Shown: positions 38,897 through 60,072, numbered from the stretch's first letter. The stretch is 64,000 nt of DNA from an uncultured Acidobacteriota bacterium (GCA_963758005.1 CAVWTR010000001.1:7737-71736); one strand, 5' to 3'. Translations and numbers: made by a program. Notes: generated by a model from the sequence alone, not told the origin.

Positions 38897-38936
38897 CAGT
38901 TTGGAAACTGATTGATCCTGCAGCAGAATTAATCCT

Positions 38937-38964
38937 GGGCCAGCATTCTTGCTGGCCCTTTTTT
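38937..38964 (+). terminator. Rho-independent terminator
   Basis: Stem gggccagca / tgctggccc with loop ttct, followed by tttttt. Confidence 0.85.
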
Positions 38965-39031
38965 ACAATCCGCACGTTAACAGATGTTCCACACAACTCG
39001 CAACAATCGCATGCCTGAGGCTTCATCCACT

Positions 39032-41620: not shown

Positions 41621-43948
41621 ATGACCGATGCATCACAGATTGCTGAGGGAGGTCCATGGATGCGCTTGCTGAGTGTTCGGCTGATTGTGTCTCTGATCGT
41701 AGGCATAACGCTGGTGTCGCTGGCGTTCTCCTATTATCAGGTCGTGCAAGAGAAGCGCACACTCCGCGGCGATCTGGAGCGGCGGGCCGAGGTCCTCGGC
41801 GAGAGTCTGGCCGGCAATGTCGAGAAGATAGTGGGAACCGGCTCGAACCAGGCGCTGCAACGACTGGTGCAACGCTTTAGCAATCGGGAAAACTTGATTG
41901 GAGTTGCAGTCTACGACCGGAACGCTGACCTCGTAGCGATGACCCCGGAGCTAGCGAAAATGCTGACTGGGAGTCCGGCAGCGCTGACCCAGGCGCTTCG
42001 CGACAATCACAATGAGAGTTCTTTCGTTAAGTTCGGAAACGACCGCATACTGATTTTCGCCTTGCCCCTGCACCGCGACAGCGAGCTAGCGGGGGCGTTG
42101 GTGATTGTGCATGACGCGGACTACATCCAGGCACAGATGCTTCGGGTGTGGCGGGAAACATTTTTCCGGGTGCTGGTGCAGGTCTTTCTGGTGGTTTTTA
42201 TCACGCTCCTGATCGTACGCTCCAGCATCAGCGGGCCGATTGTGCGCGCCGCGCAATGGATGAGAGCCATGCGCACCGGCGGAATCGCCTCATCCCAGAA
42301 GATGCCGAACCTCGACATGTTCCGTCCGCTAGCCGACGAAGTTGCCACCATGGCTGCAAGCCTGAGCCTGGCACGCAATGCTGCCGAAAACGAGGCTCGT
42401 CTGCGGGAAGCCAGCGAGTCGATGTGGACCGCGGACCGGCTCTCCGTACACATCCAAAGCCGCCTCGCCGGTACGCGGCTCTTCGTCGTTTCGAATCGCG
42501 AACCTTACATTCACCAGCGAGATGGAAAGTCCTTGAACGTGATCGTACCCCCGAGCGGCTTGGTAACTGCTCTGGAACCTGTGCTCAACGCTTGCGATGG
42601 AACCTGGATCGCGCACGGTAGCGGCGATGCTGATCTGGAAACAGTTGATGCTCACGATCGCCTTCGTGTTCCGCCCGATGATCCTCGCTACACTTTGCGG
42701 CGCGTATGGCTAAACAAGCAGGAAGAGGAAGGCTACTACTACGGTTTTGCCAACGAAGGGCTGTGGCCTCTGTGCCATATCGCTCATACTCGACCCATCT
42801 TTCGCGCGTCCGACTGGCAGTCCTATCAGGAAGTCAACCGTAAGTTTACGGTGGCGCTGCTCGAGGAGATCGAAGATATACCCAGTCCGGTAATTCTGGT
42901 CCAGGACTATCACTTCGCTTTGTTGCCGCGGATGATTAAGGAGAAGAGGCCGGACGCGCGGGTGGCTATCTTCTGGCACATTCCATGGCCAAACCCCGAA
43001 GCCTTTGGAATCTGTCCCTGGCAGCGGCAGTTGGTAGACGGCCTGCTAGGGGCTGATCTTGTCGGTTTTCACGTACAGTCGCACTGCAACAACTTCCTGC
43101 AGACCGTCGACCGGGTTGTCGAATCGCGTGTGGATTGGGAGCACTTTTCCGTTCTGCGCAAGGAGCACCGCACCATCGTCCGCCCCTTCCCTATTAGCGT
43201 GGACCTGACCGACGATGAACCTGCGGGAGGCAGCGACAGCGAGTCCAGGTATCTCGAGCGAGCGTCTTTGACCCGCAGTATTGGCTCAGAGGCAACGTTC
43301 CTCGGGATCGGCGTCGATCGGGTTGACTACACAAAAGGAATTCTGGAGCGCTTCCTGGCGATCGAGCGCTTTCTGGAGAAATATCCAGCCTATCAGGGAA
43401 AATTCACCTTCGTTCAGATTGGGGCTCCCAGCCGGACGCACCTGAAGCGCTATCACGACCTGCTGGCCGAGGTGGAAGCAGAGGCCGACCGCATCAACTG
43501 GCGCTTTCAATCAGACCGATGGAAGCCCATCGCGTTTCTGAAACGGCAGCATAGCCACAAGGAGATCACGCCGTATTATCGCGCAGCCGATCTCTGCATG
43601 GTCACGTCGCTGCACGATGGGATGAACCTGGTGGCCAAGGAATTTCTGGCGGCGCGCCAGGACGAACGTGGAGTGCTGATCCTGAGCCAGTTCACCGGCG
43701 CCGCGCGCGAACTGCGCGATGCCCTGCTGGTGAATCCCTACGACATCGATCAGTCGGCGGAAGCCATCCGGGTTGCACTCGAGATGGAACCTGAAGATAA
43801 GCAGCTGCGGATGCACCGAATGCGCCGAACGATAAAAGAACACAACATTTACCGCTGGGCCAGCAATCTAATAAGTGAACTCTGTGAGGTCCGATTGGAC
43901 GCCACGGAAGAAGAACCCGCCAGGCTCCACGCGAGCGCGAGCATCTAG
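41621..43948 (+). CDS. otsA: Trehalose-6-phosphate synthase (GT20) fused to an N-terminal TM-loop-TM-HAMP-like sensor module
   Basis: GT20 motifs are present: [57 protein letters not shown]. The N-terminal ~280 aa contain TM1 [24 protein letters not shown], a loop of ~140 aa, TM2 [19 protein letters not shown], then [18 protein letters not shown]...[15 protein letters not shown]. Confidence 0.88.
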
Positions 43949-43995
43949 TGTCTTTAGATTGGATGACTAACGGATTGGATGAATAACGGATAAGA

Positions 43996-44676
43996 ATGAT
44001 GAGCATAGCCGACACAACTCAACCACGCACTCAGGTGAAGCCATTCTTTTTCAACACTTCGACTCACCTGCTGCGCATCACGAAGTACAAGGCCAATACT
44101 CTGTCGGAACTTCTCGATGGCTTGCGCGAGTGTCCCGAAGAATCGATCTTTCAGCACACCTTCCGAACCTTGCAGGATCATCATTTTCTTTCCACTGGTT
44201 TTTCCAACGACTTCGCGCACTGGACGCTGACGGCCTGCAACGAACCGAAACTGGCTGAAGCGCTGGCAGGCGTCGATGTGCGCGAGTTCACTTCGGTGGC
44301 CGAGTTGCGCGCCCGATTCGTTGAGATCGTGGAAAGATATTTGCAGGACAATCCGGAATCCAGAACCAGCGTCGCGGATGAGGCGTTTTATTTTTGCGCG
44401 GCCGACATTATCGTCATGCCCACGAGCTCTCAGGCGCACACGCTGCACGAATTCACAGAAGGCATCAGAAACGTCAGCGTGCACTCGATTCATCATCATT
44501 TTATCGAGGCCCGGCTGCGGATCAAGCTCATGTCCAATGATTTCTCCCTGTGGCTGCACGAGGATGCTGGCCTGACTGACACTGCGCGCAACTTGAACCG
44601 GATCGATATTTACACCTCGACTCTTGAAAACGTACGGCAACAGATCGTGCGGATCATCGAAAGAGCGTTGACCTAG
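43996..44676 (+). CDS. DUF5752-family protein (trehalose-cluster associated)
   Basis: The 226-aa product reads FFFNTSTHLLRITKYKANTLSELLDGLRECPEESIFQHTF...HHHFIEARL... Family recognition is from memory of DUF5752 proteins that sit next to GT20/GT4 trehalose genes. Confidence 0.65.
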   Translation: MMSIADTTQPRTQVKPFFFNTSTHLLRITKYKANTLSELLDGLRECPEESIFQHTFRTLQDHHFLSTGFSNDFAHWTLTACNEPKLAEALAGVDVREFTSVAELRARFVEIVERYLQDNPESRTSVADEAFYFCAADIIVMPTSSQAHTLHEFTEGIRNVSVHSIHHHFIEARLRIKLMSNDFSLWLHEDAGLTDTARNLNRIDIYTSTLENVRQQIVRIIERALT

Positions 44677-44722
44677 AAAGAGCGTTGACCTAAATGTTCT
44701 CAGCTTATGGTGTTGCCTGATT

Positions 44723-46063
44723 ATGCATCCAGTGAAATCTGAATCCGTAGCCACCTCAACAGTGTCGGAGACAACCTCCGCTCAACCTGTACCCTTGCGA
44801 ACGGAGCGGCGGAAGTCGCCTCGAACCTGGGAGAAACCGCCCGCACCGGTTCCGCCGCCACACTTAGACGACTACCGGAGCGTCGTGGGTTCGGCTGCGA
44901 TTGACGAACTTCACTTCCTTGCCCGCAACCTCAAGGGCAAGACGCTCAAGATGGTTAACTCCACGGCGGTCGGCGGAGGGGTCGCCGAGATCCTGAACCG
45001 CCTGGTGCCGCTGCTCGGAGAATTGGAAGTGGTCACCCACTGGGATGTCATCACCGGAGGCAACGATTTCTTCGAGGTGACGAAGGCATTTCACAATGCC
45101 CTGCAGGGCAGTACGTACGAACTAACGCGCCAGGCGCAGGAAATCTTCCTGACCTGTAACGAGCAAAATCGGCAGCGCATGCAATTTAACGAGGACATTG
45201 TGGTAATTCACGATCCGCAGCCCGCCGCGCTCATTCGTGCCCGGCAGGACTCGCCGGCGCACTGGATTTGGCGATGCCACATCGATCTCTCGAATCCTAA
45301 TCCGCAGGTGTGGCAGTTTCTACGACCGTTCGTAGAGCAATATGACGCGGCAATTTTCTCGTCGCAATCATTTACGCGTCAGCTGTCGATTCCTCAGTAC
45401 TTGTTTTATCCATGCATTGACCCGTTATCCGAGAAGAACAAAACGCTCGACGACAGCTTTGTTCAAAAGGTTTGCGACGAGTTTGGAATCGACCGATCCC
45501 GGCCCATCGTCACCCAAGTCTCGCGCTTCGATCGCTTCAAAGATCCGGTCGGCGTGGTGCAGGCTTTCAAACTTGCCAGCAAATACGTGGATTGTCAATT
45601 GGTACTGGCGGGCGGGGGAGCCAGCGATGATCCCGAGGGTGCGACTGTTCTGGCCGAGGTAAAAGAAGCTGCGGGGGACGATCCCAACATCATCATTCTC
45701 GACCTTCCACCGTGGTGCGCACTGGAGATCAATGCCCTGCAACAGGCTTCGACTCTGGTGATTCAGAAATCGATCCGGGAAGGCTTCGGACTGACCGTAA
45801 CCGAGGCGCTGTGGAAGGGCAAACCTACGATCGCCGGCGCCGTAGGTGGAATTCCCAATCAGGTAATCGATAAGCTCACCGGCGTACTCGTGCACACGGT
45901 GGAAGGCTGCGCCTACCAGATCCGTTATCTCTTGACGCATCCCGAATTCGCCGCTCAGCTGGGCCGTAACGGACGTGAGCACGTGAAGGAAAACTTTCTC
46001 ATGACCACTAACGTGCGGCGATGGCTGTTGCTGATGCAGATTTTACTGGGCAAAACGGGTTGA
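44723..46063 (+). CDS. treT: GT4 glycosyltransferase, TreT-like trehalose synthase
   Basis: N-terminal motif VNSTAVGGGVAEILNRLVPLL...FFEVTKAFHNALQG is typical of TreT-type enzymes. The GT4 C-terminal E-x7-E motif is present (REGFGLTVTEALWKGKP). Confidence 0.75.
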   Translation: MHPVKSESVATSTVSETTSAQPVPLRTERRKSPRTWEKPPAPVPPPHLDDYRSVVGSAAIDELHFLARNLKGKTLKMVNSTAVGGGVAEILNRLVPLLGELEVVTHWDVITGGNDFFEVTKAFHNALQGSTYELTRQAQEIFLTCNEQNRQRMQFNEDIVVIHDPQPAALIRARQDSPAHWIWRCHIDLSNPNPQVWQFLRPFVEQYDAAIFSSQSFTRQLSIPQYLFYPCIDPLSEKNKTLDDSFVQKVCDEFGIDRSRPIVTQVSRFDRFKDPVGVVQAFKLASKYVDCQLVLAGGGASDDPEGATVLAEVKEAAGDDPNIIILDLPPWCALEINALQQASTLVIQKSIREGFGLTVTEALWKGKPTIAGAVGGIPNQVIDKLTGVLVHTVEGCAYQIRYLLTHPEFAAQLGRNGREHVKENFLMTTNVRRWLLLMQILLGKTG

Positions 46064-46288: not shown

Positions 46289-47281
46289 ATGAAAAGCTAC
46301 AAGACTGTTATCGGATTGTTGGGAGCTTTGTGTGCCCTGATTTTGGCTACGTCGATTGTCTACGCACAAGAAAAGAGCGCCCAGAGCACGGTTCAAGTGC
46401 ACCTGGTCATCACGAATGAGGCCGTACGCGGCGACAGTGAGGTTCCGACGCTGCAGTCAGGTGACGTGAAAGTAAAACAGGGGAAGACTCCTCTGCAAGT
46501 CACCCAATTGATCCCGGCCCAGGGAGATAACGCCGCCCTGCAGCTGTTTATCTTGATTGACGATACGCTCGACTCAGGTGTTGGAAACAATCTCAACGAC
46601 CTTCGAGATTTCATCAACGCCCAGCCCGCACCAACAGCGATCGCAGTGGGTTATATGTCGAATGCGACGGTCAACCTCGTTCAGAATTTCACCACCGACC
46701 ATGCGCTCGCCGCTAAAGCGGTCCGCTTGCCTGTCGGGAGATTGTCGACGATGGATAGTCCCTATCTGTCGCTGATCAGCCTGGTAAAAGGGTGGTCTCA
46801 ACAGAAGGTGCGGCGTGAAGTTGTCATGGTGAGCGATGGCGTCGACCGTCTTCGCGGAGTGGACCCCGCACGCGTAGGACCCAACTTTGGCCCCGTGTAC
46901 CACAGTATGCCCACCATGAGCCCGGATGTAAACTCGGCGAGCGAGATCAGCCAGCGCTATAACGTGCTGGTCTACTCGCTATACGCACTGGGCGTGGGAC
47001 GAGCCGCCCGAAGTTCCTGGGATCTGCAGATCGGCCTCTCGGGACTGGCAAAGCTTGCAGATGAAACTGGCGGTGACTGTTATTCCCTCGGCACTTCCAG
47101 TCTGGTTAGTTTTAAACCTTACCTGGACCGTCTGCAGAAGAGTCTCAACAACCAGTATTACGTGGTATTCCGGGCAATTCCGAAAAAGAAGGCCGGGCTC
47201 CAGCGAGTGAATGTAAGTACCGAAGCTTCGAATTCCGAGATATCCGCTCCCGACAATGCCTGGGTTGATCCCGGCAAATAG
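46289..47281 (+). CDS. VWFA-related acidobacterial-type domain protein (TIGR03436-like), secreted
   Basis: Signal peptide MKSYKTVIGLLGALCALILATSIVYAQE. Body reads VQVHLVITNE...LQLFILIDDT...VVMVSDGVDRL...ADETGGDCYSLG. Confidence 0.7.
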   Translation: MKSYKTVIGLLGALCALILATSIVYAQEKSAQSTVQVHLVITNEAVRGDSEVPTLQSGDVKVKQGKTPLQVTQLIPAQGDNAALQLFILIDDTLDSGVGNNLNDLRDFINAQPAPTAIAVGYMSNATVNLVQNFTTDHALAAKAVRLPVGRLSTMDSPYLSLISLVKGWSQQKVRREVVMVSDGVDRLRGVDPARVGPNFGPVYHSMPTMSPDVNSASEISQRYNVLVYSLYALGVGRAARSSWDLQIGLSGLAKLADETGGDCYSLGTSSLVSFKPYLDRLQKSLNNQYYVVFRAIPKKKAGLQRVNVSTEASNSEISAPDNAWVDPGK

Positions 47282-47426
47282 AATGCTTTCTTGTGACCGA
47301 CAGCTCATTCAACCAGGATCTCGTTATGTTCGAGACGAATCTTGGGGAAAACACGCAGACTTGGCCGAGGCTGTCGTAGAATTCAAGCCTGACGATACTT
47401 GGAAACCTGCGGACCAGGCCTTCTCT

Positions 47427-48848
47427 ATGCGAAAGACAACTCTGACGGCGATTGTTTTATTAGTCGCTATGCTGGTTCCCCAGGACTTTGGGCTCGTGCT
47501 CTCGGCCCAGTCGACCATCCCCACGGCGCAGCAACTGGATCAATTGCTGGCTCCGGTAGCGCTATACCCTGATTCCCTGCTGGCGCAAATCACAACCGCC
47601 TCGACGAATCCGCAGGAAATTCTCGACGTGGATAACTGGCTACAGCAGAATGCCGGGCTCACGGGTAGCGCGCTCACCGATGCGGCTCAAAGCCAGGGAT
47701 TCGATCCGGCATTTATTGCGCTGACAAATTTTCCGCAAGTGCTCGACATGATGGCGCAAAACATCGACGATTATGCCGCCATCGGGCAAGCCTTTTCGGC
47801 TGATCAAGGAGCGGTCACTGCCTCCATTCAGCGATTGCGAGCTCAGGCGTATGCGGCCGGGACGTTGCAGAGCAATTCCCAGCAGCAGGTGGAAGTGCAG
47901 CAGCCGGCGGGTCAGACGATTTATGTAATTCAACCGGCGAACCCGCAGGTGGTTTATGTCCCGGTCTATAACCCTACGGTGGTTTACGTCAAGCCGAGCA
48001 CGAGCACGGTCGTCGTAACATCGCTCGTCACTTTCGGAGCGGGAATCGCGATTGGGGCTCTGGTGGCTAGCAACCAGCCGTGGGGATGGGGCGGATGGGG
48101 TTGGGGATGGTCATCGGGACGGGTCTATTACAATCGCACCGTCTTTGTCGCCTGGGGAAATCCGTATCGTCCGCCGACAGTGTGGTACCGTCCGCGGCCC
48201 GTTCACTATAACAGCCGTCCGGGTTACGGTGGCAATTGGCACTATCGTCCGCCGAACTATCGGCCGCCAGCCCCGGCACCCCGTCCGCCTAATCGTAAGC
48301 CCTGGGGTCCGAATAACCCTCCGGGATATAGACCTCCTACGGGGGGCACTCGGCCGCCAGCTCATAAGCTACCCGGCACGCCTACTCAGCCGATAGCTAA
48401 GCCCACGCCCAGACCGCCGAGTGGGACAAGGCCGCCGTCGCAAGGCAAGCCAAATCCACCGTCGCAGGGCAAATCGAACCCACCCAGCACAAATCGGCCG
48501 CAAGCCAACGGCACGAAACCGCCTGCACCGAACCGGCCAGTCCTGCAACCGAAACCCGCGCAGCCGAGCCAAGGGCGACCGCAGACGAAGCCGAACCCGC
48601 CGAGCACAAATCGACCACCGGCAGAGGGCTCGAAGCCGCCTGCCACCACTCGGCCCGCTCCCACTCCCAAACCCGGAACTCCTAGTCGCGAGCCTCAAAC
48701 AAAACTAATGACGAATCCGGCTGCTGGAACGCGGCCTACACAGCAGCCAAAACCTGCTGCCCCACAGAACCGTCCTCAGCCGCAGCAAAAGCCGCCTTCG
48801 CAATCGAAGCCAGGTCCGAAACCTGTGCCGAAGACGCAGCCGCAGTAA
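47427..48848 (+). CDS. DUF3300-domain protein with a long Pro-rich C-terminal tail
   Basis: Signal/anchor MRKTTLTAIVLLVAMLV. DUF3300 hallmark LDQLLAPVALYPDSLLAQI. The C-terminal ~200 aa are P-rich with an internal duplication (NPPSTNRPQANGTKPPAPNRP / NPPSTNRPPAEGSKPPATTRP). Confidence 0.8.
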   Translation: MRKTTLTAIVLLVAMLVPQDFGLVLSAQSTIPTAQQLDQLLAPVALYPDSLLAQITTASTNPQEILDVDNWLQQNAGLTGSALTDAAQSQGFDPAFIALTNFPQVLDMMAQNIDDYAAIGQAFSADQGAVTASIQRLRAQAYAAGTLQSNSQQQVEVQQPAGQTIYVIQPANPQVVYVPVYNPTVVYVKPSTSTVVVTSLVTFGAGIAIGALVASNQPWGWGGWGWGWSSGRVYYNRTVFVAWGNPYRPPTVWYRPRPVHYNSRPGYGGNWHYRPPNYRPPAPAPRPPNRKPWGPNNPPGYRPPTGGTRPPAHKLPGTPTQPIAKPTPRPPSGTRPPSQGKPNPPSQGKSNPPSTNRPQANGTKPPAPNRPVLQPKPAQPSQGRPQTKPNPPSTNRPPAEGSKPPATTRPAPTPKPGTPSREPQTKLMTNPAAGTRPTQQPKPAAPQNRPQPQQKPPSQSKPGPKPVPKTQPQ

Positions 48849-49076: not shown

Positions 49077-50006
49077 ATGAACAGGCACATGAAAGTAGTA
49101 ACTGGTTTATTGGCCGTGTGTTTTCTGGCCTTCGGGTCGGCCCTTGCCAGCGATAAGGTAAAAGGCAAAGGGGTGATCACCCAAAGTTCCGGAGGCACTC
49201 TGACCGTGGAGACTGACGAAGGAACTACGACCGTAACTGTCACGTCTGACACGAAAGTCCAACACCCGATCGGACTTGGGGCCCGGAAAAAACAAGTGGG
49301 TCAAGAGAACCTGATTCCGGGACTCAGGCTAAAGTACGAGGGAACGGGTAGTGAGAGCCAGGTGACGGCCGAAACGATCACCTTCGACCAAGATGATCTC
49401 AGCTTGGCCAAAGTGATCCAGGCTGGTTTGAACCCCGTCGCTCAACAACAGGCCATGAACATGGCGAAATACACGGCCAATAAGGAGGCGACGGACGCCG
49501 AGCTCGCGGCCAACAAGGCGGACATCGCTGCTCACCAACAGGAGATTGAGGCATCCAAGCAAGAGATCGCGGCCAACCAACAGGGCATTCAAGAAGTTGC
49601 GCAGTCGACCCAGAAGCGCTTCTCCGATCTGGCCACGTGGTATGTGAAGGGTGAAACAACCGTGCGCTTCGCGGTCGGAGATTCTGCTATTTCGGGCGCC
49701 GACCAGCAAGCAATCGCGAACCTGGCTCAACATGCGCTCACCTACACGGGGTTTGTGATCGAAGTCAGAGGGTATGCTGACTCCACTGGCAAACTGGAAG
49801 ACAACCAACAACTCAGCAAGGAGCGTGCTCAAGCCGTGGTCGCCTATTTACTGCAGGATTGTCATGTTCCCACAAAGAACATCACTGCGCCCGGTGCAAT
49901 GGGTATAGCGAATCCGGCGGCATCGAACGAGGACGCGAGCGGACGAGCCGAAAACCGGAGAGTCGATCTTAAACTTCTTGTCAACAAAGGCGTGGCTGGC
50001 CAGTAA
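49077..50006 (+). CDS. OmpA-family peptidoglycan-binding protein with N-terminal beta domain and coiled coil
   Basis: Signal peptide VVTGLLAVCFLAFGSALA. OmpA_C motifs VRGYADSTG...NQQLSKERAQAVVAYL...NRRVDLKLL. Confidence 0.88.
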   Translation: MNRHMKVVTGLLAVCFLAFGSALASDKVKGKGVITQSSGGTLTVETDEGTTTVTVTSDTKVQHPIGLGARKKQVGQENLIPGLRLKYEGTGSESQVTAETITFDQDDLSLAKVIQAGLNPVAQQQAMNMAKYTANKEATDAELAANKADIAAHQQEIEASKQEIAANQQGIQEVAQSTQKRFSDLATWYVKGETTVRFAVGDSAISGADQQAIANLAQHALTYTGFVIEVRGYADSTGKLEDNQQLSKERAQAVVAYLLQDCHVPTKNITAPGAMGIANPAASNEDASGRAENRRVDLKLLVNKGVAGQ

Positions 50007-50076
50007 GGCTTTGGTTCGCAGAAGCTGTCCGCTTCGGAGGTGAGTCTTAAGTCAAGATTTCTTCCGCTTGTTACAA

Positions 50077-50117
50077 TAGGCTGATCACCTTGTTATAGGT
50101 GGTCAGCCTATTTTTTT
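50077..50117 (+). terminator. Rho-independent terminator
   Basis: 14-bp stem taggctgatcacct / aggtggtcagccta (one G-U pair) with loop tgttat, followed by ttttttt. Confidence 0.85.
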
Positions 50118-50691
50118 GGAGTTTTCTTTGCCTTCATTGCCAAGAAGTCTGTGCAGTCTATTTTTTTCGACCTTGATCCTTGCACTCGGGATTGTCCCGA
50201 CTATCGCAGCCGAGCCAAAATTGCCGGGCGCTCAGGACAGTCCCTACCGGCTTCATTTTTTCCACACCCATACTGGGGAACGCTTGAATATCGTCTACCG
50301 CGATGGCGAAGGCTATGGCTACGATCAGGATTCCCTGGCGCTCCTGAGCCATTACCTGCGGGACCACCGCACCGGCGAAGTTCGCGAGTACGATCCCCGG
50401 GTATTCGATCTTCTGCACGACTTGACCACTGCGCTGGGGAACCCCGACCTCGAGATTGACGTTGTTTGTGGCTATCGCACGCCCTGGAGCAATGAGTTCC
50501 TGCGCACACATGGGCACGGTGTGGCCCGTCAGAGTCTGCACATGCAGGCCATGGCGATTGACATCCGGATACCCGGCGTTCCCACCTCACAATTGAGGGA
50601 TGCGGCGTTGGCACTGCATCGCGGCGGTGTGGGCTACTATGCTGCGTCAAACTTTGTGCACGTCGACGTGGGCCGCGTCCGCCGCTGGTAG
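50116..50691 (+). CDS. DUF882/YcbK (MepK-like) M15-family peptidoglycan peptidase
   Basis: YRLHFFHTHTGERLNIVY...DVVCGYRTPWSNE...SLHMQAMAIDIRIPG...SNFVHVDVG. The listed TTG start overlaps the upstream terminator T-run, so a downstream TTG (50128 or 50137) is more likely. Confidence 0.8.
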   Translation: MEFSLPSLPRSLCSLFFSTLILALGIVPTIAAEPKLPGAQDSPYRLHFFHTHTGERLNIVYRDGEGYGYDQDSLALLSHYLRDHRTGEVREYDPRVFDLLHDLTTALGNPDLEIDVVCGYRTPWSNEFLRTHGHGVARQSLHMQAMAIDIRIPGVPTSQLRDAALALHRGGVGYYAASNFVHVDVGRVRRW

Positions 50692-50706
50692 GTTTGGGAG
50701 ACTAGG

Positions 50707-52377
50707 CTACGGGTACGGATATCCCTTGGCGAGCGCAGCCGCCAGCTTGGCATCGTGTCCGTAAATATCATCGCTGAAGTGAACGTCGCCGTTTTCGTAG
50801 GCGAGCGCCGTTCCGTAAACGATGAACACCGGAACCCGCTTTGCGAGGTTCACGGTAACATCGTCTTTTCCGCTCTGCATGCCTTCCTTTACTCGCTCCA
50901 GTGTCCATCCTGGATTATTGCGCAGCGCCCATGCGGCGAGTTCGGCTGGTTTTTCAACTCGAATGCAGCCGTGGCTAAAGTCACGGCGGGAGCGCGAGAA
51001 CAACTGCGGAGCAGGCGTGCTATGAAGGTAGACGTTATATTCATTCGGGAAAATCAGTTTGACCAGACCAAGGGCGTTGGTCGGGCCCGGCTTCTGCCGC
51101 ACCGCGAGCTTCCCTGCGCGCAATTGCGCCAACACATCATCGGAAATATCCCCTGAGGTAACAACTTTGCCGCCCTGTGTAGTGACTTCGTAATTCTTGC
51201 GGGCAATGTAGCCGCGGTCGCGCTGAATGGCGGGAACAATCTCGCTGCGGAGAATGCTGGGAGGCACATTCCAGTAAGGGCGCAGAACCAGGTAAACCAT
51301 ATCCCGTGAGAAAACAGGCGTCTGAGTGCGCATCGACTTCCCGACCACGACGCGCATGTCCAGAGCCACATTGTTATTTTCATCGAGGGCGCGCAAACGG
51401 AAATCGGGAATGTTCACGATGATGGGTGGTGCGGAAAACTCCGCCGGCAACCATCGCCAGCGCTCCAACGTGAGCTGCAATTGGCGCACCCGTTCTTGCA
51501 GAGGCACGTTGAGCTGTTTTATTGTGCCGGGACCGAGGCGACCATCCTCATCGAGCCCGTGGCGGCGCTGAAAACGTTTTACTGCATCCACCAGCGGCCC
51601 ACCGTAGGTTTGGGCATCTCCCGTCAAGACAGCATCCGCCGGCAGGTCACCCACAAGTCGTAAGAAACGCGTCAGGCGCGGTACGCCAGCATAGGTCTGG
51701 CCCGGGTCGATGGGCTTCGTGACTTCGGGTAGCTTCTCCCCGTCGTCGGCGCGTGCCAGTTCGATGTAGCGGGCAAGTGCCGCCTCGGTGCGGCGATAGG
51801 CGGCAAACGGAGGTTCCACTCCGTCCATGAGAGCTGGCAGATTCGAACTAGTGAGGATCCGGTCGCGCAAAAACTGGGCTAGATCGTACTTTTTTTGCTC
51901 AACGCTCAGTCCGACATGGAAATGTGCTGGATTGATCCGCCCAATACGCAAGTCGGACACATAGCGCATGGTGCAGACAGTGAGGGCTACGTCAAAACGC
52001 GCAACTTCCGTTCCGTTCGCAGAGCCCTGGAGCGCGCGGAGTCTTTCCTCCCAGCGCGAGGCGTCGTAATCCTCCGGGTCCAGCCCTTTTTTTCCGGCAT
52101 CCCTGAAAAGCTGAATCATCGCTGCAGCCTGCGGTACCGGCTGCTGCCCCTGGATCCACGCGGGCGCGTATCCTGCAGGCTCGTAAAACTTCTGCAGCCA
52201 GGTCCGATAATCGCTAGAGTTCGGCCAGCGCATGCCCTCCAGGTTCCCACTTGCGACCAGTTTCTGGATGTCGGCGGGTTGTTGGCCGGGTAGGAAAGTT
52301 GTCAACACCGCCACAAGGACGGTGCAGTTCAATGCGAAGCGGAGCCGATGGCAAGCACTATGCATCTTAACTTTCAC
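50707..52377 (-). CDS. YcbB/LdtD-like L,D-transpeptidase (PG_binding_1 plus YkuD)
   Basis: PG-binding repeat LVDAVKRFQRRHGLDEDGRLGPGTIKQL. YkuD catalytic motif YLHSTPAPQLFSRSRRDFSHGCIRV. Confidence 0.88.
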   Translation of the reverse strand: MKVKMHSACHRLRFALNCTVLVAVLTTFLPGQQPADIQKLVASGNLEGMRWPNSSDYRTWLQKFYEPAGYAPAWIQGQQPVPQAAAMIQLFRDAGKKGLDPEDYDASRWEERLRALQGSANGTEVARFDVALTVCTMRYVSDLRIGRINPAHFHVGLSVEQKKYDLAQFLRDRILTSSNLPALMDGVEPPFAAYRRTEAALARYIELARADDGEKLPEVTKPIDPGQTYAGVPRLTRFLRLVGDLPADAVLTGDAQTYGGPLVDAVKRFQRRHGLDEDGRLGPGTIKQLNVPLQERVRQLQLTLERWRWLPAEFSAPPIIVNIPDFRLRALDENNNVALDMRVVVGKSMRTQTPVFSRDMVYLVLRPYWNVPPSILRSEIVPAIQRDRGYIARKNYEVTTQGGKVVTSGDISDDVLAQLRAGKLAVRQKPGPTNALGLVKLIFPNEYNVYLHSTPAPQLFSRSRRDFSHGCIRVEKPAELAAWALRNNPGWTLERVKEGMQSGKDDVTVNLAKRVPVFIVYGTALAYENGDVHFSDDIYGHDAKLAAALAKGYPYP

Positions 52378-52976: not shown

Positions 52977-53675
52977 TCAATGACAGGATCCATCGTCCTG
53001 AAATTGTCCGCTTGCGGCCATCGATGCCAGAGAGCGCGCGCAACTGAGTATCTGCTGATTCAAGGGATCGTCTCGCAACGCATCGGTGGAGATGTAATTC
53101 ATATTTTGGCGCGAGGCCAAAATCTTATCGCTTAACTTTTGCATGTTCTCGAACACACTGCTGAGCAATTGAAATGCGCTGCGATCAGAATCGGTTGACA
53201 CTGCTACCGATGCGAGTCTGAGACTTGTTACAGCCTGGCCCTGGTAACGGGCTACGAAATCATCTGTAACCGGGTATCCATTTTGAACGGCGCTGGAAAG
53301 CGCCGTGCGCCATTCCCTGATCGTGGACCCTGCCTCAATGCCAGCCTTCAGGAAGTCCTTCGAGAATCCGGAACTGGCGGGCTGGCTTGCAGGAACAACG
53401 GTCGCGGGGGCGCTTGCGGCGGAGGACGGCAACGTCAATGTAACTTGATTCCCTTTGAAGCTGAGGGAACCACTCGCAAGCCGTGCTAGGGCTTCGATGT
53501 CTACATAGGACCTGCCATCGATCTGGAGGAGCGGCGTTTGCCCCGGCTGACCGCTCACAGTGAGGGCGCCCTTCTGCTGCACTGCCTGCGATAGACCGAG
53601 CCCCGGCGTTGCCAGGAGCGCTGCCAAGATTAATCCTGCGGTCGACAATTTACTGATCATCGATTTACTGATCAT
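52977..53675 (-). CDS. Secreted hypothetical protein with a copper-amine-oxidase-N-like (stalk) segment
   Basis: Signal LSTAGLILAALLATPGLGLSQA. Segment LLQIDGRSYVDIEALARLASGSLSFKGNQVTLTLP. The first five codons are duplicated (MISKS-MISKL) by a 15-bp tandem repeat. Confidence 0.65.
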   Translation of the reverse strand: MISKSMISKLSTAGLILAALLATPGLGLSQAVQQKGALTVSGQPGQTPLLQIDGRSYVDIEALARLASGSLSFKGNQVTLTLPSSAASAPATVVPASQPASSGFSKDFLKAGIEAGSTIREWRTALSSAVQNGYPVTDDFVARYQGQAVTSLRLASVAVSTDSDRSAFQLLSSVFENMQKLSDKILASRQNMNYISTDALRDDPLNQQILSCARSLASMAASGQFQDDGSCH

Positions 53676-53719: not shown

Positions 53720-54205
53720 CTAGGGGATCAGTGGGATTTCATCCGTCAGTTGCAGATTGATGATTAGCGAGATCCGGTTATCTACCTGATAGAACTTGGC
53801 GGCTCGTTTCGCCCCGAGAGCGTTCATGAATTTCGGCCAATAATCCTCGCGCACGTTCAAGTTCCGGTCCTCAATGCTGATCATGCGCTGCATCATGTCT
53901 TTGGCTTTCGGGTCATCCAAGCTGTCGTAATTCTTGGCGTAATCACTGATCAACTGCACTCGATCGTCACCGATCAGCTGCTGGTCGCGCGCGTAGTCCC
54001 GATAGACTGGCCAGAATACCTTCGATTCGGCGTCGGTGAATTGCATCGTGTCAGCAATAATCTGGTTCTTGACGGACTGCACGTCGGAACGCAGCAATTG
54101 GATATCGGTGTCACTCAGGGGTTTCGCAGTCACTTGCGCCGTCTGAGCGAAAACAGTTGCGCTTATCAGAACGATCGCAGCAAAGATTACGATTCGCGTT
54201 CGCAT
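53720..54205 (-). CDS. Periplasmic hypothetical protein
   Basis: Signal peptide MRTRIVIFAAIVLISATVFAQ followed by a helical, charged body. No family recognised. Confidence 0.6.
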   Translation of the reverse strand: MRTRIVIFAAIVLISATVFAQTAQVTAKPLSDTDIQLLRSDVQSVKNQIIADTMQFTDAESKVFWPVYRDYARDQQLIGDDRVQLISDYAKNYDSLDDPKAKDMMQRMISIEDRNLNVREDYWPKFMNALGAKRAAKFYQVDNRISLIINLQLTDEIPLIP

Positions 54206-54675: not shown

Positions 54676-55458
54676 CTAGCGACTCTTCCGAGCCATTCGC
54701 AGGCCAGCCGAAGAAGCTAACGCCAGAAATCCGAGCAGCCCGATCAAAGGCAGCTCACTTCCGGTCTTCGGAAGTTCCGGCGCTGGCGCAGCGTCAGCAA
54801 CCGCTGCGGGAGCCGGAGCGGGAGCGGGTACATAGACAACCAGAATCGGCACGTCTGGTGGCGGAGGCGGTGGCGGCGGCATCTGACCTGTTACGGTCCG
54901 GCTTTGTGAAACGTCCACAATGGGCTCCTCCACCACTTTGGTGGCCGAGACTTTCATGCCTTTCTTCAGACCCCAGGCATCGACCATCTGTCCATCGATA
55001 TTGAACTTTTGACCCTTGGGAATCGTGAACTTCTGGTTGCTTCCGTCATCCAGCTTCAAGATCACGGTGCTTGGCGGACTGATGTACCACACCGTTCCGG
55101 TGACGCTCTTCACGACGGTGATGGTCTTTGGGGTGGTGGTGGTGGTGATGGTACGTTGAAGTTTCATGCCCGGCTTCAGGTCGTGAATTCCGAGTTGCTG
55201 GCCATCAACCGTGACTCTGGCACTTTCCGGCACATTGGCAAAATGCCGGATGCTGCCATCGGACGCCTTGACCAGCAGATCGTTGCCCGAAACATATACC
55301 ACTACGCCACTTTCGACTGTGGTTTGTACCGAGGCTTTGTGGGCGGTTGTCGTTGTTGTGGTTTCAACCTGCGCGCTCGCGCTCAGGGTAAGGGCCAGGC
55401 CAACAGTCCCTACCACGAGCGCAAGCCATGCACGCGTCCAACTTGCTTTTGAGTTCAT
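54676..55458 (-). CDS. LPXTG-motif surface protein (sortase substrate)
   Basis: An AGGAG Shine-Dalgarno precedes the ATG at 55458. A signal peptide is followed by two ~75-aa repeats, each opening with a poly-Thr run. A PPPPPPPP and PAPAPAPA stalk follows. The C-terminus is LPKTG (54760-54774) + SELPLIGLLGFLALASSAGL + RMARKSR. Confidence 0.85.
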   Translation of the reverse strand: MNSKASWTRAWLALVVGTVGLALTLSASAQVETTTTTTAHKASVQTTVESGVVVYVSGNDLLVKASDGSIRHFANVPESARVTVDGQQLGIHDLKPGMKLQRTITTTTTPKTITVVKSVTGTVWYISPPSTVILKLDDGSNQKFTIPKGQKFNIDGQMVDAWGLKKGMKVSATKVVEEPIVDVSQSRTVTGQMPPPPPPPPDVPILVVYVPAPAPAPAAVADAAPAPELPKTGSELPLIGLLGFLALASSAGLRMARKSR

Positions 55459-55515
55459 TTTGTTTTCTCCTTTGTCCATTTTCGGAATCGTATTCTTGGA
55501 TCCTTCAGCTTTGCT

Positions 55516-56490
55516 TCAATCAAAAATCAAAACAGATTCGTCGTGTAAGTACTGCGCTAAAGCTCCTGGCTCGGATCCGGTCCGCACGGCAGCATGTTGG
55601 TTCGCCTCAGCAGACCCAGACTCCGATGCTTGAACGATGTAACGTTGTGGGGCGCTGCCGATGAAATAAAAGGGGTAGCACGTTATCAATGTTAGAGATG
55701 GCCGCGAGCGTGGCTGCAGCACGGAAAGGTCGGTGCGCTCGACGATCGTGATGCGATCGATGGTGTACGTCAGTGACTGCTGCAGCGTAGCGATTTCAAT
55801 TTGGTCGCCGACCGCGATGTCCTTCAGCCCACGGAAGAACCCGTCTCGATGTCCAGCAATCGCCACATTGCCTTGCTCACCGGGGTTGGCCGTGCCTGCC
55901 ACGTGTCCCACTCCCCGATTCAAGGTGAGGTCGTCGGTTCCTTCAAGGATGGGAACTTCAACGCTAATCTTGGGTATGCGAAGAATTCCAATAGCAGGGG
56001 AGAAGTGTTCAGCCAAGCTCTCCTGGTATTCCTTGATACGTTTCTCCGACCACAAACTAAAGTCTGGGGCCCCGGTGGTCAGAGCCACTCCGTGCGGCCC
56101 TGCGACCGAAACCATTTGCTGAGACTTGAACCTCTGCACCTCGGCCTTGGACAATACCGTCCTGTGGATGCGAGCCGCCACATAGAAGGCCAGCATGCAG
56201 CACTCCCACGACCAGCAGCAGACGTTCGAGTATTGCGTAGCCAGCTCATTCGGTTTTACCCAAGCCACTCGCCCCAACCAGCTAAGGATGTGCCTGCTTC
56301 GCGAGTACCTGCTTAACCATAAGGAGCGAAATGAATATGGCATAACTGTCATTACTAACGTCCCCAGCGTGGTAAGCAATAGACAGTCCCACCTGAACTG
56401 TGACAACGGGCGGGTCGGTCCGCTACTATGCCCTGAAGCCGTAGGAAAGCCGAGCATGTACGCGAGTGCCGAATTTCCCGCCCAGCCCAT
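55516..56490 (-). CDS. Sortase-family transpeptidase (N-terminal boundary uncertain)
   Basis: The catalytic domain has VAIAGHRDGFFRGL (His), TLITCYPF (TLxTC Cys) and PQRYIVQA (Arg). The region upstream of residue 99 is not sortase-like in this frame (see finding). Confidence 0.8.
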   Translation of the reverse strand: MGWAGNSALAYMLGFPTASGHSSGPTRPLSQFRWDCLLLTTLGTLVMTVMPYSFRSLWLSRYSRSRHILSWLGRVAWVKPNELATQYSNVCCWSWECCMLAFYVAARIHRTVLSKAEVQRFKSQQMVSVAGPHGVALTTGAPDFSLWSEKRIKEYQESLAEHFSPAIGILRIPKISVEVPILEGTDDLTLNRGVGHVAGTANPGEQGNVAIAGHRDGFFRGLKDIAVGDQIEIATLQQSLTYTIDRITIVERTDLSVLQPRSRPSLTLITCYPFYFIGSAPQRYIVQASESGSAEANQHAAVRTGSEPGALAQYLHDESVLIFD

Positions 56491-56497
56491 TTGAGAT

Positions 56498-56929
56498 TTA
56501 CACCGAGTCGTTCACGCTTTCGCCGGGGGCATATAACAACGTCGGCGATACGAAGAACTTATTGGAAAGCACCGCATCGATGGCACAGAGCAGATCCATG
56601 CTCAACCGCGATTTCACAACGTAGGCCGACGCGCCCGCCCCCATGGCGGCGTTTACAAAGTCCGAGTCTTCGTGGACTGAGAGGAAAATGATCTTGGCAC
56701 TACACCCGGAATCTCGCAGCTGCCGGGCTATATCGATTCCGCTCACTGCTCCCATGGAAATATCAAGGGAGACGACAGTGGGCCGGAGGCGGAAATATTC
56801 GCGGACGACCGCTGCCCCGTCGGAGATGGCGGCAACGACCTTGCAATCCGTTTCCCTTTCCAGCATCGTGCGAACATGGTCGAGTACAGCGACGTTGTCG
56901 TCGGCCAGAAGGACGGTTTTTCTTGGCAC
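56498..56929 (-). CDS. NarL-type receiver protein lacking the HTH
   Basis: TVLLADDNVAVLDHVRTML...TVVSLDISMGAVSG...AYVVKS. It ends without an output domain. Its stop is 7 nt from the sortase ORF start. Confidence 0.85.
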   Translation of the reverse strand: MPRKTVLLADDNVAVLDHVRTMLERETDCKVVAAISDGAAVVREYFRLRPTVVSLDISMGAVSGIDIARQLRDSGCSAKIIFLSVHEDSDFVNAAMGAGASAYVVKSRLSMDLLCAIDAVLSNKFFVSPTLLYAPGESVNDSV

Positions 56930-57105
56930 AGACCCGCCTCTCGATGGCTGGAGGTGATTGCACCCTGCGGTTTAGCGGTCGCCGTTTGGGGTTGCCTGAG
57001 ACCCACAGGCCCATCGGCCAGTCTTCACTAACTTGGTCATGGTATTTTGACCTAGAACTGGTCGGCTACTGTCAAAATTGACAATCGCGCAATAGCAGCT
57101 AAACC

Positions 57106-60072
57106 CTAGTCAGCCGCGGAATCCGCCACCCCGCGAACCACTTTCTTGGTAACCGGAACACGGCCTTCCACCTGTGTGCCAAGGGATGGTTTCGACCAGA
57201 CTGCAAATTCGCCGCCCACCGACCGCAGACGCTCCTTCATGCTGACCAGTCCAAGTCCGTGCTTACTTCGCAGGTCCTCCGGATTGAAGCCATTTCCGTC
57301 GTCGGAAACCCGTAACTGGACAACACTCGATCGGCAGGTCATTTCCACCTTCACATGACGGGCATGGCTGTGCTTGACCGCATTGCGCAGCGACTCCTGA
57401 GCCGTCCGGAACAAGCTCAGCGATATATTTTCCTCGAGATCCTGGGGCAGATCCTGCACTACACACTCGATTTTGATCTTGTGCTGCTGCGAAAACTCAC
57501 GGCAGAGATCGCGCACGGCTGCTGCGAGCCCAAGGTAGTGCAGCTTTGATGGATGCAACTGATGAGATATGTGCTGGATGTCAGTTGCGATTTCGTTGGT
57601 CAGCTGCCAAAGTTCCTGCAGTCCCTTCTGAGGGACAGATGCGTTGTGGGCCGACATGGCCTGTTCAAATTCCTGGAGTCCGTTCGCCAGCAACGCCAGC
57701 CTCTGGTTGATGTCGTCGTGCAACTCGCGGGCAATTCGGCTCCGCTCTTCTTCTTGTGCTTCCATTAGCCTCCGGCCCACGGTGGAAAGAGCCTCTTCGG
57801 CGAGCTTGCGATCCGTGATGTCGATACAAGAACCGATGTAGCCGGCAAAAGAATTGTCGGAGTTGAATCTCGGCACGCCGGCATCGAAGATCCAGCGATA
57901 CTCGCCGTCATGTCGCCGGAGACGATACTGCATCTCGAACGGCTGACGTGCATCGAACGCCCTGGTATACGTATCCAGGCACGCCGTGAAGTCGTCAGGA
58001 TGAACTCCTTCTGTCCATCCGTTTCCAAGCTCCGCCCCCAGAGGTCTGCCCGTAAATTCGAGCCAGGGCTGATTGAAGTAATCGCACAGCTTGTCGAGAC
58101 CGGACGTCCAGATCATCACTGGAGCGGTGTTCGCCACCAGTCTGAACCGCCTCTCGCTCTCTAGCAGAGCCTGTTCTCCCCGCATGCGATCGGTAATATC
58201 GCGAGCAATCTCGGAAGCGCCCACGATCTTGCCCGTCCCATCTCTCACTGGAGATATGGTGAGTGAGACATCAATCTTTTTTCCCTCCTTGGTGGCCCTG
58301 AGCGTTTCGTAGCGCTCAACATTCTCCCCCGCTCTGGCTTTTTGCAGAATTGCTTTCTCTTCCTCCCGAAGCTCGGGCGGGATAAGAATCGTAATGGGTT
58401 GACCCAGCGCTTCCGCTTCGCGGAATCCGAAGATTTGCTCTGCGCCCCGATTCCAACTCACGATGATTCCGTCCAGGTTCTTGGAGATAATCGCATCGTC
58501 AGAGGATTCCACAATCGAAGCCAGCCGCGATCGAGCCTCCTCGGCGCGCTTGCGCTCGGTGATGTCCTGGATTGTGCCGCGAAGGAAGGACACGCGATCC
58601 CTGAGATCTCGAACCGCCACCGCACGAACGCTGACCCAGCCATGACTGCCATCGGCGCGCACCAATCCCAAATCAAGTTCCCGAAACGAGCCAGATCGCG
58701 AAGCCTCTTCCATCGCGGTACTCAGTCGATGCCAGCTTTCTGGGCTCAGCAGCTGTGCGAGTTCCTCGTAGGATGGAGCGGGCGAACTGGAATCGCGTCC
58801 GAAGATGCGATAAATCTCGTCTGACCAGGATAGGGTCTTACTCTTGGTATCCCAAAGCCAGTTGCCCATGTGCGCGATACCTTGCGCTTCCGCGAGTTCC
58901 GCTTCCTTTCGGCGCAGGGTTTCCTGAGCGCGCTTGCGCTTGCTGACATTGCGCGCCAGCAAAATGATCAGCACTGTCTGGATGAGCAGAATCGCGGAAA
59001 GCCCCAGGATTCTCCAACCGTAAAGCTCCCACGGGGAGTATTGCCAGTAGCGTACTTCGCCTTCCTTGGGAAGCTCGCTCTCCGGGATTCCCCAGCGGTG
59101 CGATTCACGCCAGTCGATCGCGTAGTGCTGAAAATCGCCAGTGGCAACGGGGATTTTCTCCGGCTTCTCGCCCTTCAGAATGCGCAGTCCATCATCTCCC
59201 AGGATTCGTCCCACCTCGCCGAGATCGGCTACGCTTCCCCCCACCACTCCCGCGCCTACCACGGAAGAAAACGTTCCGTAGATCGGGCGGTTTGCCGCCT
59301 TTGAAATCGCTGGCAGAATACGAGCAGGAATAAACCGCTCCCCATGAGAGTCCGTTACGAAATCGAGGAACACAATGATGGTGTCAGCCTGCACGTTTCC
59401 CAGCCGAGGGCCCAGTTCTGAAAACTGCAGGTCGGTCCAGTATTGAAAATCCGGATTCGACTCATACGAGCGATACTGCTCGCGCGCTTTCTTTACATCG
59501 AGTTTCTCGGCGTCCGAGCTGCCCGAAATGACGATCACGTGCGAAGTGCCAGGATTTTGACGCAAAGCCAGCTGCAGGGTGGGAAGATAATTCGCATTTC
59601 GGATTACACCGGTTCTGCCCCGTTCGTTATTTAGCCAACTTGAAGGCTTCTGAGGATCCGTCACAAAGAAGACGAGCCCAGCGTCTGGGAACAGCTTCGC
59701 TCGAATCTTTTCCGCGAAAGCTACGGTATCTTCGTCGATAGCAATCACCAGGTCGAAGGTCTGTCCGTGGTACTTCTGGAGCAGATACGAAGCCGTTGCT
59801 CGCTGGTGTGACGGATCCTCGAAAGATGAGGAACCTTCGAGATATTCAAAACTGAAATGAACCGGCCTGTTGGAGCCATCAAGAATGTGGGTTTCGGTCT
59901 GCTCGATCATCGCGGCGACGTCGGGCAAGTCCGGATCCGCGGAGGAAAGGAAAAGCACTTCGATTTCTTGTCCCGAGCGGCGGGGATCGCTGGAGGTATT
60001 CGCTGCCACGCTCGTTAATACGACGAAACAAAGAACAAGAATGTAGAGCGCCGCAAACCGCGAAGTAACCAC
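57106..60072 (-). CDS. Sensor histidine kinase: periplasmic ABC-substrate-binding-like domain, TM, 3 x PAS, HisKA_3, HATPase
   Basis: A signal/anchor is followed by a periplasmic domain of ~330 aa (VLFLSSADPDLPD...VIVISGSSD...IIVFLDFVTD...), then TM helix ILGLSAILLIQTVLIILLA, then PAS/PAC blocks. H-box RSRIARELHDDINQ, N-box AQESLRNAVKHS, G1 SDDGNGF, G2 GLGLVSMKERL. Confidence 0.88.
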   Translation of the reverse strand: MVTSRFAALYILVLCFVVLTSVAANTSSDPRRSGQEIEVLFLSSADPDLPDVAAMIEQTETHILDGSNRPVHFSFEYLEGSSSFEDPSHQRATASYLLQKYHGQTFDLVIAIDEDTVAFAEKIRAKLFPDAGLVFFVTDPQKPSSWLNNERGRTGVIRNANYLPTLQLALRQNPGTSHVIVISGSSDAEKLDVKKAREQYRSYESNPDFQYWTDLQFSELGPRLGNVQADTIIVFLDFVTDSHGERFIPARILPAISKAANRPIYGTFSSVVGAGVVGGSVADLGEVGRILGDDGLRILKGEKPEKIPVATGDFQHYAIDWRESHRWGIPESELPKEGEVRYWQYSPWELYGWRILGLSAILLIQTVLIILLARNVSKRKRAQETLRRKEAELAEAQGIAHMGNWLWDTKSKTLSWSDEIYRIFGRDSSSPAPSYEELAQLLSPESWHRLSTAMEEASRSGSFRELDLGLVRADGSHGWVSVRAVAVRDLRDRVSFLRGTIQDITERKRAEEARSRLASIVESSDDAIISKNLDGIIVSWNRGAEQIFGFREAEALGQPITILIPPELREEEKAILQKARAGENVERYETLRATKEGKKIDVSLTISPVRDGTGKIVGASEIARDITDRMRGEQALLESERRFRLVANTAPVMIWTSGLDKLCDYFNQPWLEFTGRPLGAELGNGWTEGVHPDDFTACLDTYTRAFDARQPFEMQYRLRRHDGEYRWIFDAGVPRFNSDNSFAGYIGSCIDITDRKLAEEALSTVGRRLMEAQEEERSRIARELHDDINQRLALLANGLQEFEQAMSAHNASVPQKGLQELWQLTNEIATDIQHISHQLHPSKLHYLGLAAAVRDLCREFSQQHKIKIECVVQDLPQDLEENISLSLFRTAQESLRNAVKHSHARHVKVEMTCRSSVVQLRVSDDGNGFNPEDLRSKHGLGLVSMKERLRSVGGEFAVWSKPSLGTQVEGRVPVTKKVVRGVADSAAD

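Follow-up and report, generated by a model that had tools for sequence, protein, structure and literature searches.

What does a sortase do in a bacterium that presumably has an outer membrane, and on which protein does it act? The question is raised by a 64,000-nucleotide (nt) stretch of DNA from an uncultured Acidobacteriota bacterium (GCA_963758005.1 CAVWTR010000001.1:7737-71736; the whole stretch is referred to as the window), in which four minus-strand open reading frames (ORFs) were called at 57106-60072, 56498-56929, 55516-56490, and 54676-55479. They correspond to a sensor histidine kinase, a receiver-only response regulator, a sortase, and an LPKTG protein, and all four genes that an earlier note on this DNA had grouped into one module are present. 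Only the sortase and its substrate, 57 nt apart, are tightly packed; the gap between kinase and regulator is 176 nt and that between regulator and sortase about 250 nt. The comparison with other loci points to a two-gene sortase-substrate cassette of Acidobacteriota, which most likely tethers a tandem beta-barrel protein covalently to periplasmic peptidoglycan, a reading that we consider probable but hold with some reserve.

The sortase and its predicted LPXTG-type substrate

The features of the two genes and of the region upstream of them are listed below, with lengths in amino acids (aa); L001 is a near-identical contig from another sample.

55516..56249, minus strand: sortase gene from a conserved ATG at 56249 (family N-termini; the catalytic part lies in the frame of a 324-aa ORF)
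55624..56046, minus strand: sortase catalytic domain (PF04203, E=5e-32), with His in AGHRDGFF, Cys in TLITCYP, and Arg in QRYIV
54676..55458, minus strand: sortase substrate, 260 aa from the second ATG (ORF; a 260-aa gene is called in L001)
54760..54774, minus strand: LPKTG sorting motif with predicted Thr-Gly cleavage (translation)
54880..55347, minus strand: tandem beta-barrel core of the substrate, residues 45-200 of the 267-aa ORF (internal duplication, AlphaFold2)
56250..56497, strand not given: hypervariable intergenic region between regulator and sortase (alignment of near-identical contigs)

The catalytic domain belongs to the sortase superfamily, with 110.6 bits for PF04203 (cut-off 26.6) and 98.2 bits for TIGR01076 (cut-off 39.35). 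His214, Cys271, and Arg283 are invariant across 15 sequences, and the His/TLITC/Arg catalytic motifs recognized in the earlier note are therefore borne out. Classified by hidden Markov models (HMMs), as that note had proposed, the sortase is nearest to class D, with one class D model passed and the general one below its cut-off: NF058671 (class D, "LPxTATN-specific") scored 157.7 bits, above its cut-off of 140, and NF033746 (general class D) scored 145.1 bits, below its cut-off of 165. The other classes remained at a distance, with 87 bits for TIGR03784 (class GN, cut-off 158.25), 94 bits for the class C model (cut-off 160), and about 93 bits for class E. Class D was also the top-ranked NCBIfam family in all 15 sortase family members tested, and the best solved structures are two class D enzymes, 2ln7 of B. 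anthracis (3e-23) and 4d70 of C. perfringens (2e-16). On HMM scores and solved structures, the sortase is nearest to class D and not to the proteobacterial class GN.

The neighboring protein has the architecture of a sortase substrate. A Sec signal peptide (no lipobox Cys) is followed by tandem small beta-barrels, a Pro-rich stalk, LPKTG, a hydrophobic helix, and the tail RMARKSR, and both the signal peptide and the three-part sorting signal can be read directly from the sequence. The sorting signal scored 19.2 bits with TIGR01167 (cut-off 15.9) and 16.6 bits with PF00746 (below the cut-off of 20); with TIGR01167 passed, the textbook signal described earlier, from the stalk to RMARKSR, stands. 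It is the sole such signal in the window. A PEP-CTERM/exosortase signal was considered and rejected, since the motif is LPKTG, TIGR01167 was passed, and the neighbor is a true sortase. Translation most likely begins at the second ATG (55458), preceded by AAGGAG 8 nt upstream as a putative Shine-Dalgarno sequence, and not at the first ATG of the 267-aa ORF.

The substrate core is built from two units of about 55 residues each, homologous to one another (35% identity, E=2e-9) and flanked by conserved Thr-rich strands (RTITTTTTPKTIT). AlphaFold2 gave a predicted local distance difference test score (pLDDT) of 64 for the full-length protein and of 85 for the core, which is modeled as all-beta. No Pfam match was obtained for the substrate even at E<=10, and Foldseek searches with the substrate models returned weak matches to tandem barrels of the TOBE, Mop, and OB types (E ~1e-3, TM-score <=0.3). 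A survey paper on isopeptide bonds proved to have no bearing on this protein. NCBI records gave no names for the cluster members; JGI annotates many substrate homologues as "LPXTG-motif cell wall-anchored protein". In a set of 120 close homologues the motif is LPKTG in 75, LPKTA in 26, and LPHTG in 14; substrates adjacent to the sortase have LPKTG-S, LPKTA-S, or LPHTG-S, and the conserved form of the signal is LP[KHEAQ]T[GA]. A wider search found 681 relatives among 1.84 billion cluster representatives, and their complete C-termini are mostly of the LPXTG type. A few distant relatives (P0314, P0347, P0354, P0373) end in a plain transmembrane helix and a basic tail with no LPXTG. Anchors of the P0354/P0373 type fit a tandem-barrel domain that works while tethered C-terminally in the envelope, and the domain appears, from such sequences, to be sometimes membrane-anchored and not sortase-processed.

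The predicted model contains unusually long beta-strands, and low-probability Foldseek matches include a spore appendage and a phage tail-tube protein, as might be expected of a pilin-like subunit polymerized into a fiber by the sortase. We regard this as very improbable. The sortase scores far under the class C model, and each locus has a lone sortase and a lone substrate, with neither a further pilin nor a housekeeping sortase encoded close by. A pilin-like YPKN motif was not noticed when the substrate was read by eye, no pattern search or Ig-fold test having been made.

Both families are large, with at least 7995 database members for the sortase and at least 5571 for the substrate. In a collection with one genome per species, at least 470 stretches encode a relative. 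The best 80 of these, from 79 different assemblies, are nearly all from Acidobacteriota (Acidobacteriaceae, Terriglobales, Acidoferrales, Thermoanaerobaculia, and Holophagales), and the isolates Granulicella sp. L46 and Acidobacteriaceae KBS 83 are among the carriers. Of 76 evaluable loci of other species, 64 have a homologous substrate of about 260 aa with LP[KE]T[GA] as the next gene downstream of the sortase, in the same orientation; in one further locus it lies upstream. The spacing is typically a few tens of nt, and the substrate, with LPKTG, LPKTA, LPETG, LPATG, or LPQTG, is usually the sole LPXTG-type ORF in the 7 kb or so to each side. The 64 of 76 loci strongly support the dedicated pairing proposed for the window. 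Sorting signals number one in the 64 kb of the window and, as a rule, one in each 14-kb locus. When all ORFs were clustered, two-component genes and antisense shadow ORFs were the only other neighbors conserved in more than 15 of 81 loci. Given this conservation of the pair and the lack of further conserved neighbors except the two-component genes, the conserved functional unit is the sortase with one substrate, probably a "dedicated" pair in the sense of Haft (PMC3237569), which calls for a single target protein in the whole genome. The earlier note had called the arrangement unusual, which was an overstatement, since the cassette occurs phylum-wide (at least 470 stretches) and a similar architecture has already been defined in Proteobacteria.

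Two variant forms of the pair were seen. In an LPETG subclade, the sortase and substrate are read in one ORF of 489-584 aa (L040:6872-8341, L048:6947-8539, L053:6811-8433, and L079:3860-5614), with no stop between them and a segment resembling the substrate signal peptide in the interior; in the sister loci L075 and L084 the two are in separate frames. The one-ORF form may be a genuine fusion, or the stop codon may have been lost repeatedly. A high-GC sortase subclade (L060, L061, L064, L070, and L082, with the sortase at about position 7000) has an ORF of about 530 aa upstream and a polytopic membrane ORF of about 430 aa downstream. It has no adjacent LPXTG protein, and any substrate would then be encoded elsewhere.

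Start and reading frame of the sortase gene

The sortase start had been placed 7 nt after the stop of the receiver gene, which is wrong. Homologous sortases are about 240 aa long and begin with MxWLRxxERLLL, a short tip in the cytoplasm that leads into a transmembrane helix, and the equivalent of this start in the window is the conserved ATG at 56249, about 250 nt beyond the regulator stop. The 324-aa ORF (55516-56490) is opened by an ATG at 56490 within the intergenic region and is, judging from the N-termini of the family, an artefactual upstream read-through.

From this start, the window copy does not read through. Relative to the near-identical contigs L001 and L005 from other samples, the latter a Logan run assembly, it carries two +1 insertions near 56230 and 56196, which leave MSWLRN (the start), then ILERLLLVVGVL, then MLAFYVAARIHR in three different frames. 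Start, transmembrane helix, and catalytic domain each lie in a frame of their own, and the N-terminal membrane anchor is not intact. The anchor is intact in L001 and L005, where the gene encodes 243 aa, and in all relatives examined; in another near-identical contig, L003, the anchor-coding stretch has lost 1 nt, a change that differs from those of the window. Elsewhere the identity between the window and L001 is 99.5-99.95%, and all insertions and deletions between them fall into two hotspots, one formed by the anchor stretch with the adjoining intergenic region and the other at 48370-48550. The second hotspot lies in a DUF3300 protein (47256-48848), in its C-terminal tail, which is Pro-rich and of low complexity and includes a 24-nt tandem repeat.

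The frameshifts reflect either a pseudogene or an assembly or consensus error in a strain-variable region. A pseudogenized sortase, which the earlier note had named as a finding that would undo its proposal, may on account of the two insertions apply to the window copy; the cassette would then be a recently inactivated relic in this strain and functional in relatives. We treat this as a serious, if tentative, possibility. The displacement of start, helix, and catalytic domain into three frames speaks for it, as do the confinement of the other insertions and deletions relative to L001 to two hotspots, which counts against random sequencing noise, and the different frame-breaking deletion of L003 within the same stretch of about 50 nt. 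On the other side, the protein sequence of the catalytic domain is 100% identical to that of L001, in which, as in L005, the gene is intact. The contig names suggest long-read assemblies, the sister contig L002 is full of frameshifts, and the insertions adjoin a strain-variable stretch, where consensus polishing of mixed strains can fail. With the anchor frameshifted, the cassette may be inactive in this strain unless the insertions are assembly errors.

The adjoining intergenic region is itself hypervariable, with three very different alleles (window, L001:10433-10614, and L003:10433-10733) among contigs that are otherwise 99.5-99.9% identical. The L003 allele has a small ORF for a hydrophobic 33-aa peptide, starting at an ATG 7 nt past the regulator stop. 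A mobile element or repeat was considered for this stretch and set aside, no second copy being present in the window or the loci.

The two-component genes and other neighbors

The features of the two upstream genes are as follows.

57106..60072, minus strand: sensor histidine kinase, 988 aa (ORF; Pfam/NCBIfam domains)
59053..59985 (approximate), minus strand: periplasmic sensor of the kinase, PF04392/ABC solute-binding type, about residues 30-340 (profile against PDB)
56498..56929, minus strand: stand-alone receiver-domain response regulator, 143 aa, NarL/MctR-like (PF00072, E=7e-20)

The kinase comprises a signal/transmembrane segment, a periplasmic solute-binding-like domain, a transmembrane segment, three PAS domains, HisKA_3, and HATPase_c, and L001, L003, and L004 each have an identical gene call of 988 aa. 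Its transmitter is of the HisKA_3 (NarX/LiaS) type, with 38.8 bits for PF07730 and 50.4 bits for PF02518. As a single sequence, the N-terminal 340 residues gave a faint PF04392 match (E=0.026); a profile of 12 homologues matched the solved structures 6hni (E=2.5e-7), 3lkv (4.6e-6), and 3lft (9e-4). Because this 12-sequence profile matches ABC-type solute-binding proteins, the reading as a substrate-binding-like sensor stands, and the kinase with such a sensor and three PAS domains is as first described, by its Pfam/NCBIfam domains as well as by the profile.

The regulator likewise agrees with the initial description as a NarL-type receiver without a helix-turn-helix. PF00072 is its only domain, its top NCBIfam matches are the receiver halves of MctR and NarL, and no GerE/LuxR helix-turn-helix was found with Pfam or NCBIfam, the protein stopping 20-30 residues past the receiver. 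Its relatives are also short (131-165 aa) and have similar C-terminal tails, e.g., KLFVSS, RFFIS, and TFISPS. Since the same short form occurs in relatives, the regulator is a genuine stand-alone receiver and not a truncation. A truncated NarL with a helix-turn-helix decayed into the intergenic region was rejected on this ground, and the three-frame translations of that region showed no recognizable helix-turn-helix by eye.

Whether these two genes belong to the cassette is a separate matter. Regulator-like matches occur in the 1-kb bin directly upstream of the sortase in 16 of 74 loci and in 1-11 loci (mostly 2-5) for each of the other bins. A regulator lies within 1.5 kb upstream on the same strand in 12 of 80 loci, and a kinase with a homologous sensor is present in 12 loci. 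The layouts differ: the same-strand arrangement is found in L006-L010, L041, and L085, a divergent receiver in L037, L046, L047, and L074, and a convergent kinase, downstream on the opposite strand, in L042 and L076. The two-component association is thus recurrent, in several separate clades, but optional. The linked sensory system claimed for the window therefore holds in part, recurring in these clades with enrichment in the upstream bin and lacking at most loci.

The two-component system could be a mere neighbor, with the sortase pair independent of it and its position an inherited synteny in a genome crowded with signaling genes. The window encodes at least eight kinases, four receiver-only regulators, and one NarL-type regulator in 64 kb, and in DNA so rich in two-component genes the adjacency of kinase and regulator means little when the window is taken alone. 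The low counts among loci (12 of 80 for the regulator, 12 for the kinase) point the same way. The regulator has no DNA-binding output domain, and the gaps measure 176 nt and about 250 nt, so that co-transcription is not implied and any control by the regulator must be indirect. Against a mere neighbor stand the roughly fourfold enrichment of regulator matches directly upstream of the sortase, the association in separate clades and in the rearranged layouts (L041 and L085; L037, L046, L047, and L074; L042 and L076), and the proteobacterial analogue, which is demonstrably controlled by its adjacent kinase (PMC11580497). We consider independence quite possible, though somewhat doubtful. Dense two-component genes were noted at 6820-13949, 21365-22574, and 27375-40748; one of the kinases there, of 2115 aa (31279-37626), combines 11 HAMP stretches with a GAF domain and three receiver domains.

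Of the OmpA, TonB, and L,D-transpeptidase envelope functions that had been named for the rest of the window, OmpA and L,D-transpeptidase are present and TonB was not found among the window ORFs scanned. The cluster of peptidoglycan-related genes at 49077-52377, a few kb from the cassette, encodes an OmpA-family protein, a Peptidase_M15_2/DUF882 protein, and a YkuD L,D-transpeptidase with PG_binding_1. The L,D-transpeptidase, the sole member of this group searched elsewhere, lies near the sortase in just two loci of other species (L026 and L083). Two secreted proteins without a Pfam family are encoded directly downstream of the substrate (53720-54205 and 52977-53675); the 161-aa secreted protein also follows the substrate in L006, L007, and L010 and occurs elsewhere in a few other loci. 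Further away are a BlaI-type repressor beside an ORF with a BlaR1 M56 peptidase domain and a trehalose-synthesis pair (GT20 OtsA-like and TreT-like), at 2240-4078 and 41621-46063, neither of which is related to the sortase finding. An RNA element was considered and set aside, Rfam giving no family match anywhere in the window, and promoter and terminator scans gave no excess over shuffled expectation and are uninformative.

Proposed function and comparison with known systems

In the proposed mechanism, the substrate would be exported by Sec and retained in the inner membrane by its C-terminal helix and basic tail. The sortase, as a predicted type II membrane protein, would face the periplasm with its Cys-His-Arg domain and cut the motif between Thr and Gly, giving a thioacyl intermediate. 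The Thr carboxyl may then be passed to an amine; by analogy, the likeliest acceptor is meso-diaminopimelate, in the side chain of lipid II or peptidoglycan. It is reported that the class D sortase SrtC of B. anthracis joins LPNTA proteins to diaminopimelate cross-bridges (PMC8225981); diaminopimelate is proposed here because this is the nearest characterized class. The predicted product is a tandem beta-barrel protein on a Pro-rich stalk of about 45 residues, covalently held on a thin periplasmic wall. In this lineage and several others, the kinase and the receiver-only regulator would probably modulate expression or activity of the cassette indirectly. The diderm setting is indicated indirectly by the OmpA-family gene in the window and by the origin of related loci from Acidobacteriaceae and Terriglobales, since Terriglobales isolates are described as Gram-negative by stain (PMC12935467).

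A different acceptor (for example, a lysine of an outer-membrane protein, a lipid, or an amine of a polysaccharide), or a sortase acting mainly as a protease that frees the substrate from its membrane anchor, appears unlikely. In the literature found, no acceptor has been demonstrated for any diderm sortase, the Pro-rich stalk could span to the outer membrane, and some distant substrate relatives seem to end right after the barrel domain, although many such records are gene fragments. The nearest characterized enzymes (class D) use wall diaminopimelate, and the substrate signal has the full three-part wall-anchor architecture, both of which favor attachment to peptidoglycan.

Several observations count against wall attachment by a regulated cassette. 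The sortase anchor is not intact in the window, and L003 is disrupted at the same place. Neither Pfam nor Foldseek provided an informative fold homologue of the substrate. The best-scoring model, NF058671, has a specificity for LPxTA followed by TN, and the neighbor has LPKTGSE; of the seven-residue contexts that occur repeatedly, twelve in number, none has TN after the motif. At most loci a two-component system is not adjacent, the window is crowded with such genes, and the gaps and the lack of an output domain do not imply co-transcription. On acidobacterial sortases, nothing was found in the literature beyond a Solibacter gene count. With these points considered, the cassette is real, widespread, and experimentally unstudied, and its copy in the window may be defective; attachment to the wall is still the reading that we prefer.

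A further proposal, speculative and rather improbable, is that Acidobacteriota install a phylum-specific wall protein by sortase and not by L,D-transpeptidase. With its Pro-rich stalk and tandem barrels, it would serve as an envelope spacer or wall-to-outer-membrane connector with an independently arisen function like that of Braun's lipoprotein, which a kinase sensing a periplasmic solute might adjust in some lineages.

For sortases of bacteria with an outer membrane, the sole defined case is the dedicated system of Proteobacteria, which is characterized by expression data. The cassette is a second, independent, and much more widespread example in presumed diderms, in a highly abundant soil phylum, and combines a class D-like enzyme with a textbook LPXTG signal. 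If the substrate is wall-linked, it would be a new kind of covalent envelope tether in diderms and would bear on sortase anchoring in relation to the monoderm/diderm split. Its fate is directly testable, since cultured carriers exist (Granulicella sp. L46 and Acidobacteriaceae KBS 83).

Among known systems, the class D sortases of Firmicutes (B. anthracis SrtC 2ln7, C. perfringens SrtD 4d70, and B. subtilis YhcS) provide the best HMM and structure-sequence matches. They are small enzymes with an N-terminal anchor, few and often nearby-encoded substrates, and diaminopimelate as acceptor. Unlike them, the cassette belongs to a presumed diderm host not known to sporulate, stays below the cut-off of NF033746 (145 against 165), has the motif LPKTG-S-E and not LPxTA(TN), and includes an unrelated substrate family. 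Braun's lipoprotein Lpp resembles the predicted product in being a periplasmic protein with its C-terminus covalently on wall diaminopimelate (10.1101/2021.02.21.432140). In contrast to Lpp, the cassette would use a sortase and not a YkuD-type transpeptidase, a Thr and not a Lys linkage, and no lipid anchor, and any contact of its substrate with the outer membrane is speculative.

The closest parallel in organization is the proteobacterial dedicated sortase system, which consists of the kinase gene pdsS, the regulator gene pdsR, the OmpA-like pdsO, a single vWA-type LPXTG target, and a class GN sortase (PMC3237569, PMC11580497). A pdsS kinase mutant of Shewanella algae expresses the sortase, the target, and pdsO at levels 126- to 799-fold higher (PMC11580497). 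The system of Shewanella, Colwellia, and others and the cassette have in common a diderm host, presumed in the case of the cassette, and a sortase beside a single LPXTG-type target; an adjacent kinase and regulator are shared by the window and several clades but not by most loci. Neither has a known biochemical role. The cassette sortase is from a different clade (87 bits against the TIGR03784 cut-off of 158), and its target is a tandem beta-barrel protein, whereas the proteobacterial target is of the vWA/inter-alpha-trypsin type. Pds-specific models were not among the best 25 NCBIfam matches of the kinase or the regulator. Unlike the proteobacterial system, the cassette runs in the order kinase, regulator, sortase, target with no OmpA-like pdsO inside; the sole OmpA-family gene of the window lies about 5 kb away on the other strand, and an OmpA-family gene is not among the neighbors common to more than 15 of 81 loci. 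The acidobacterial regulator also has no output domain, and the two-component genes accompany the cassette only in some lineages. The cassette thus shares the logic of the proteobacterial dedicated system and falls outside it by these features, and it is not a categorically new system.

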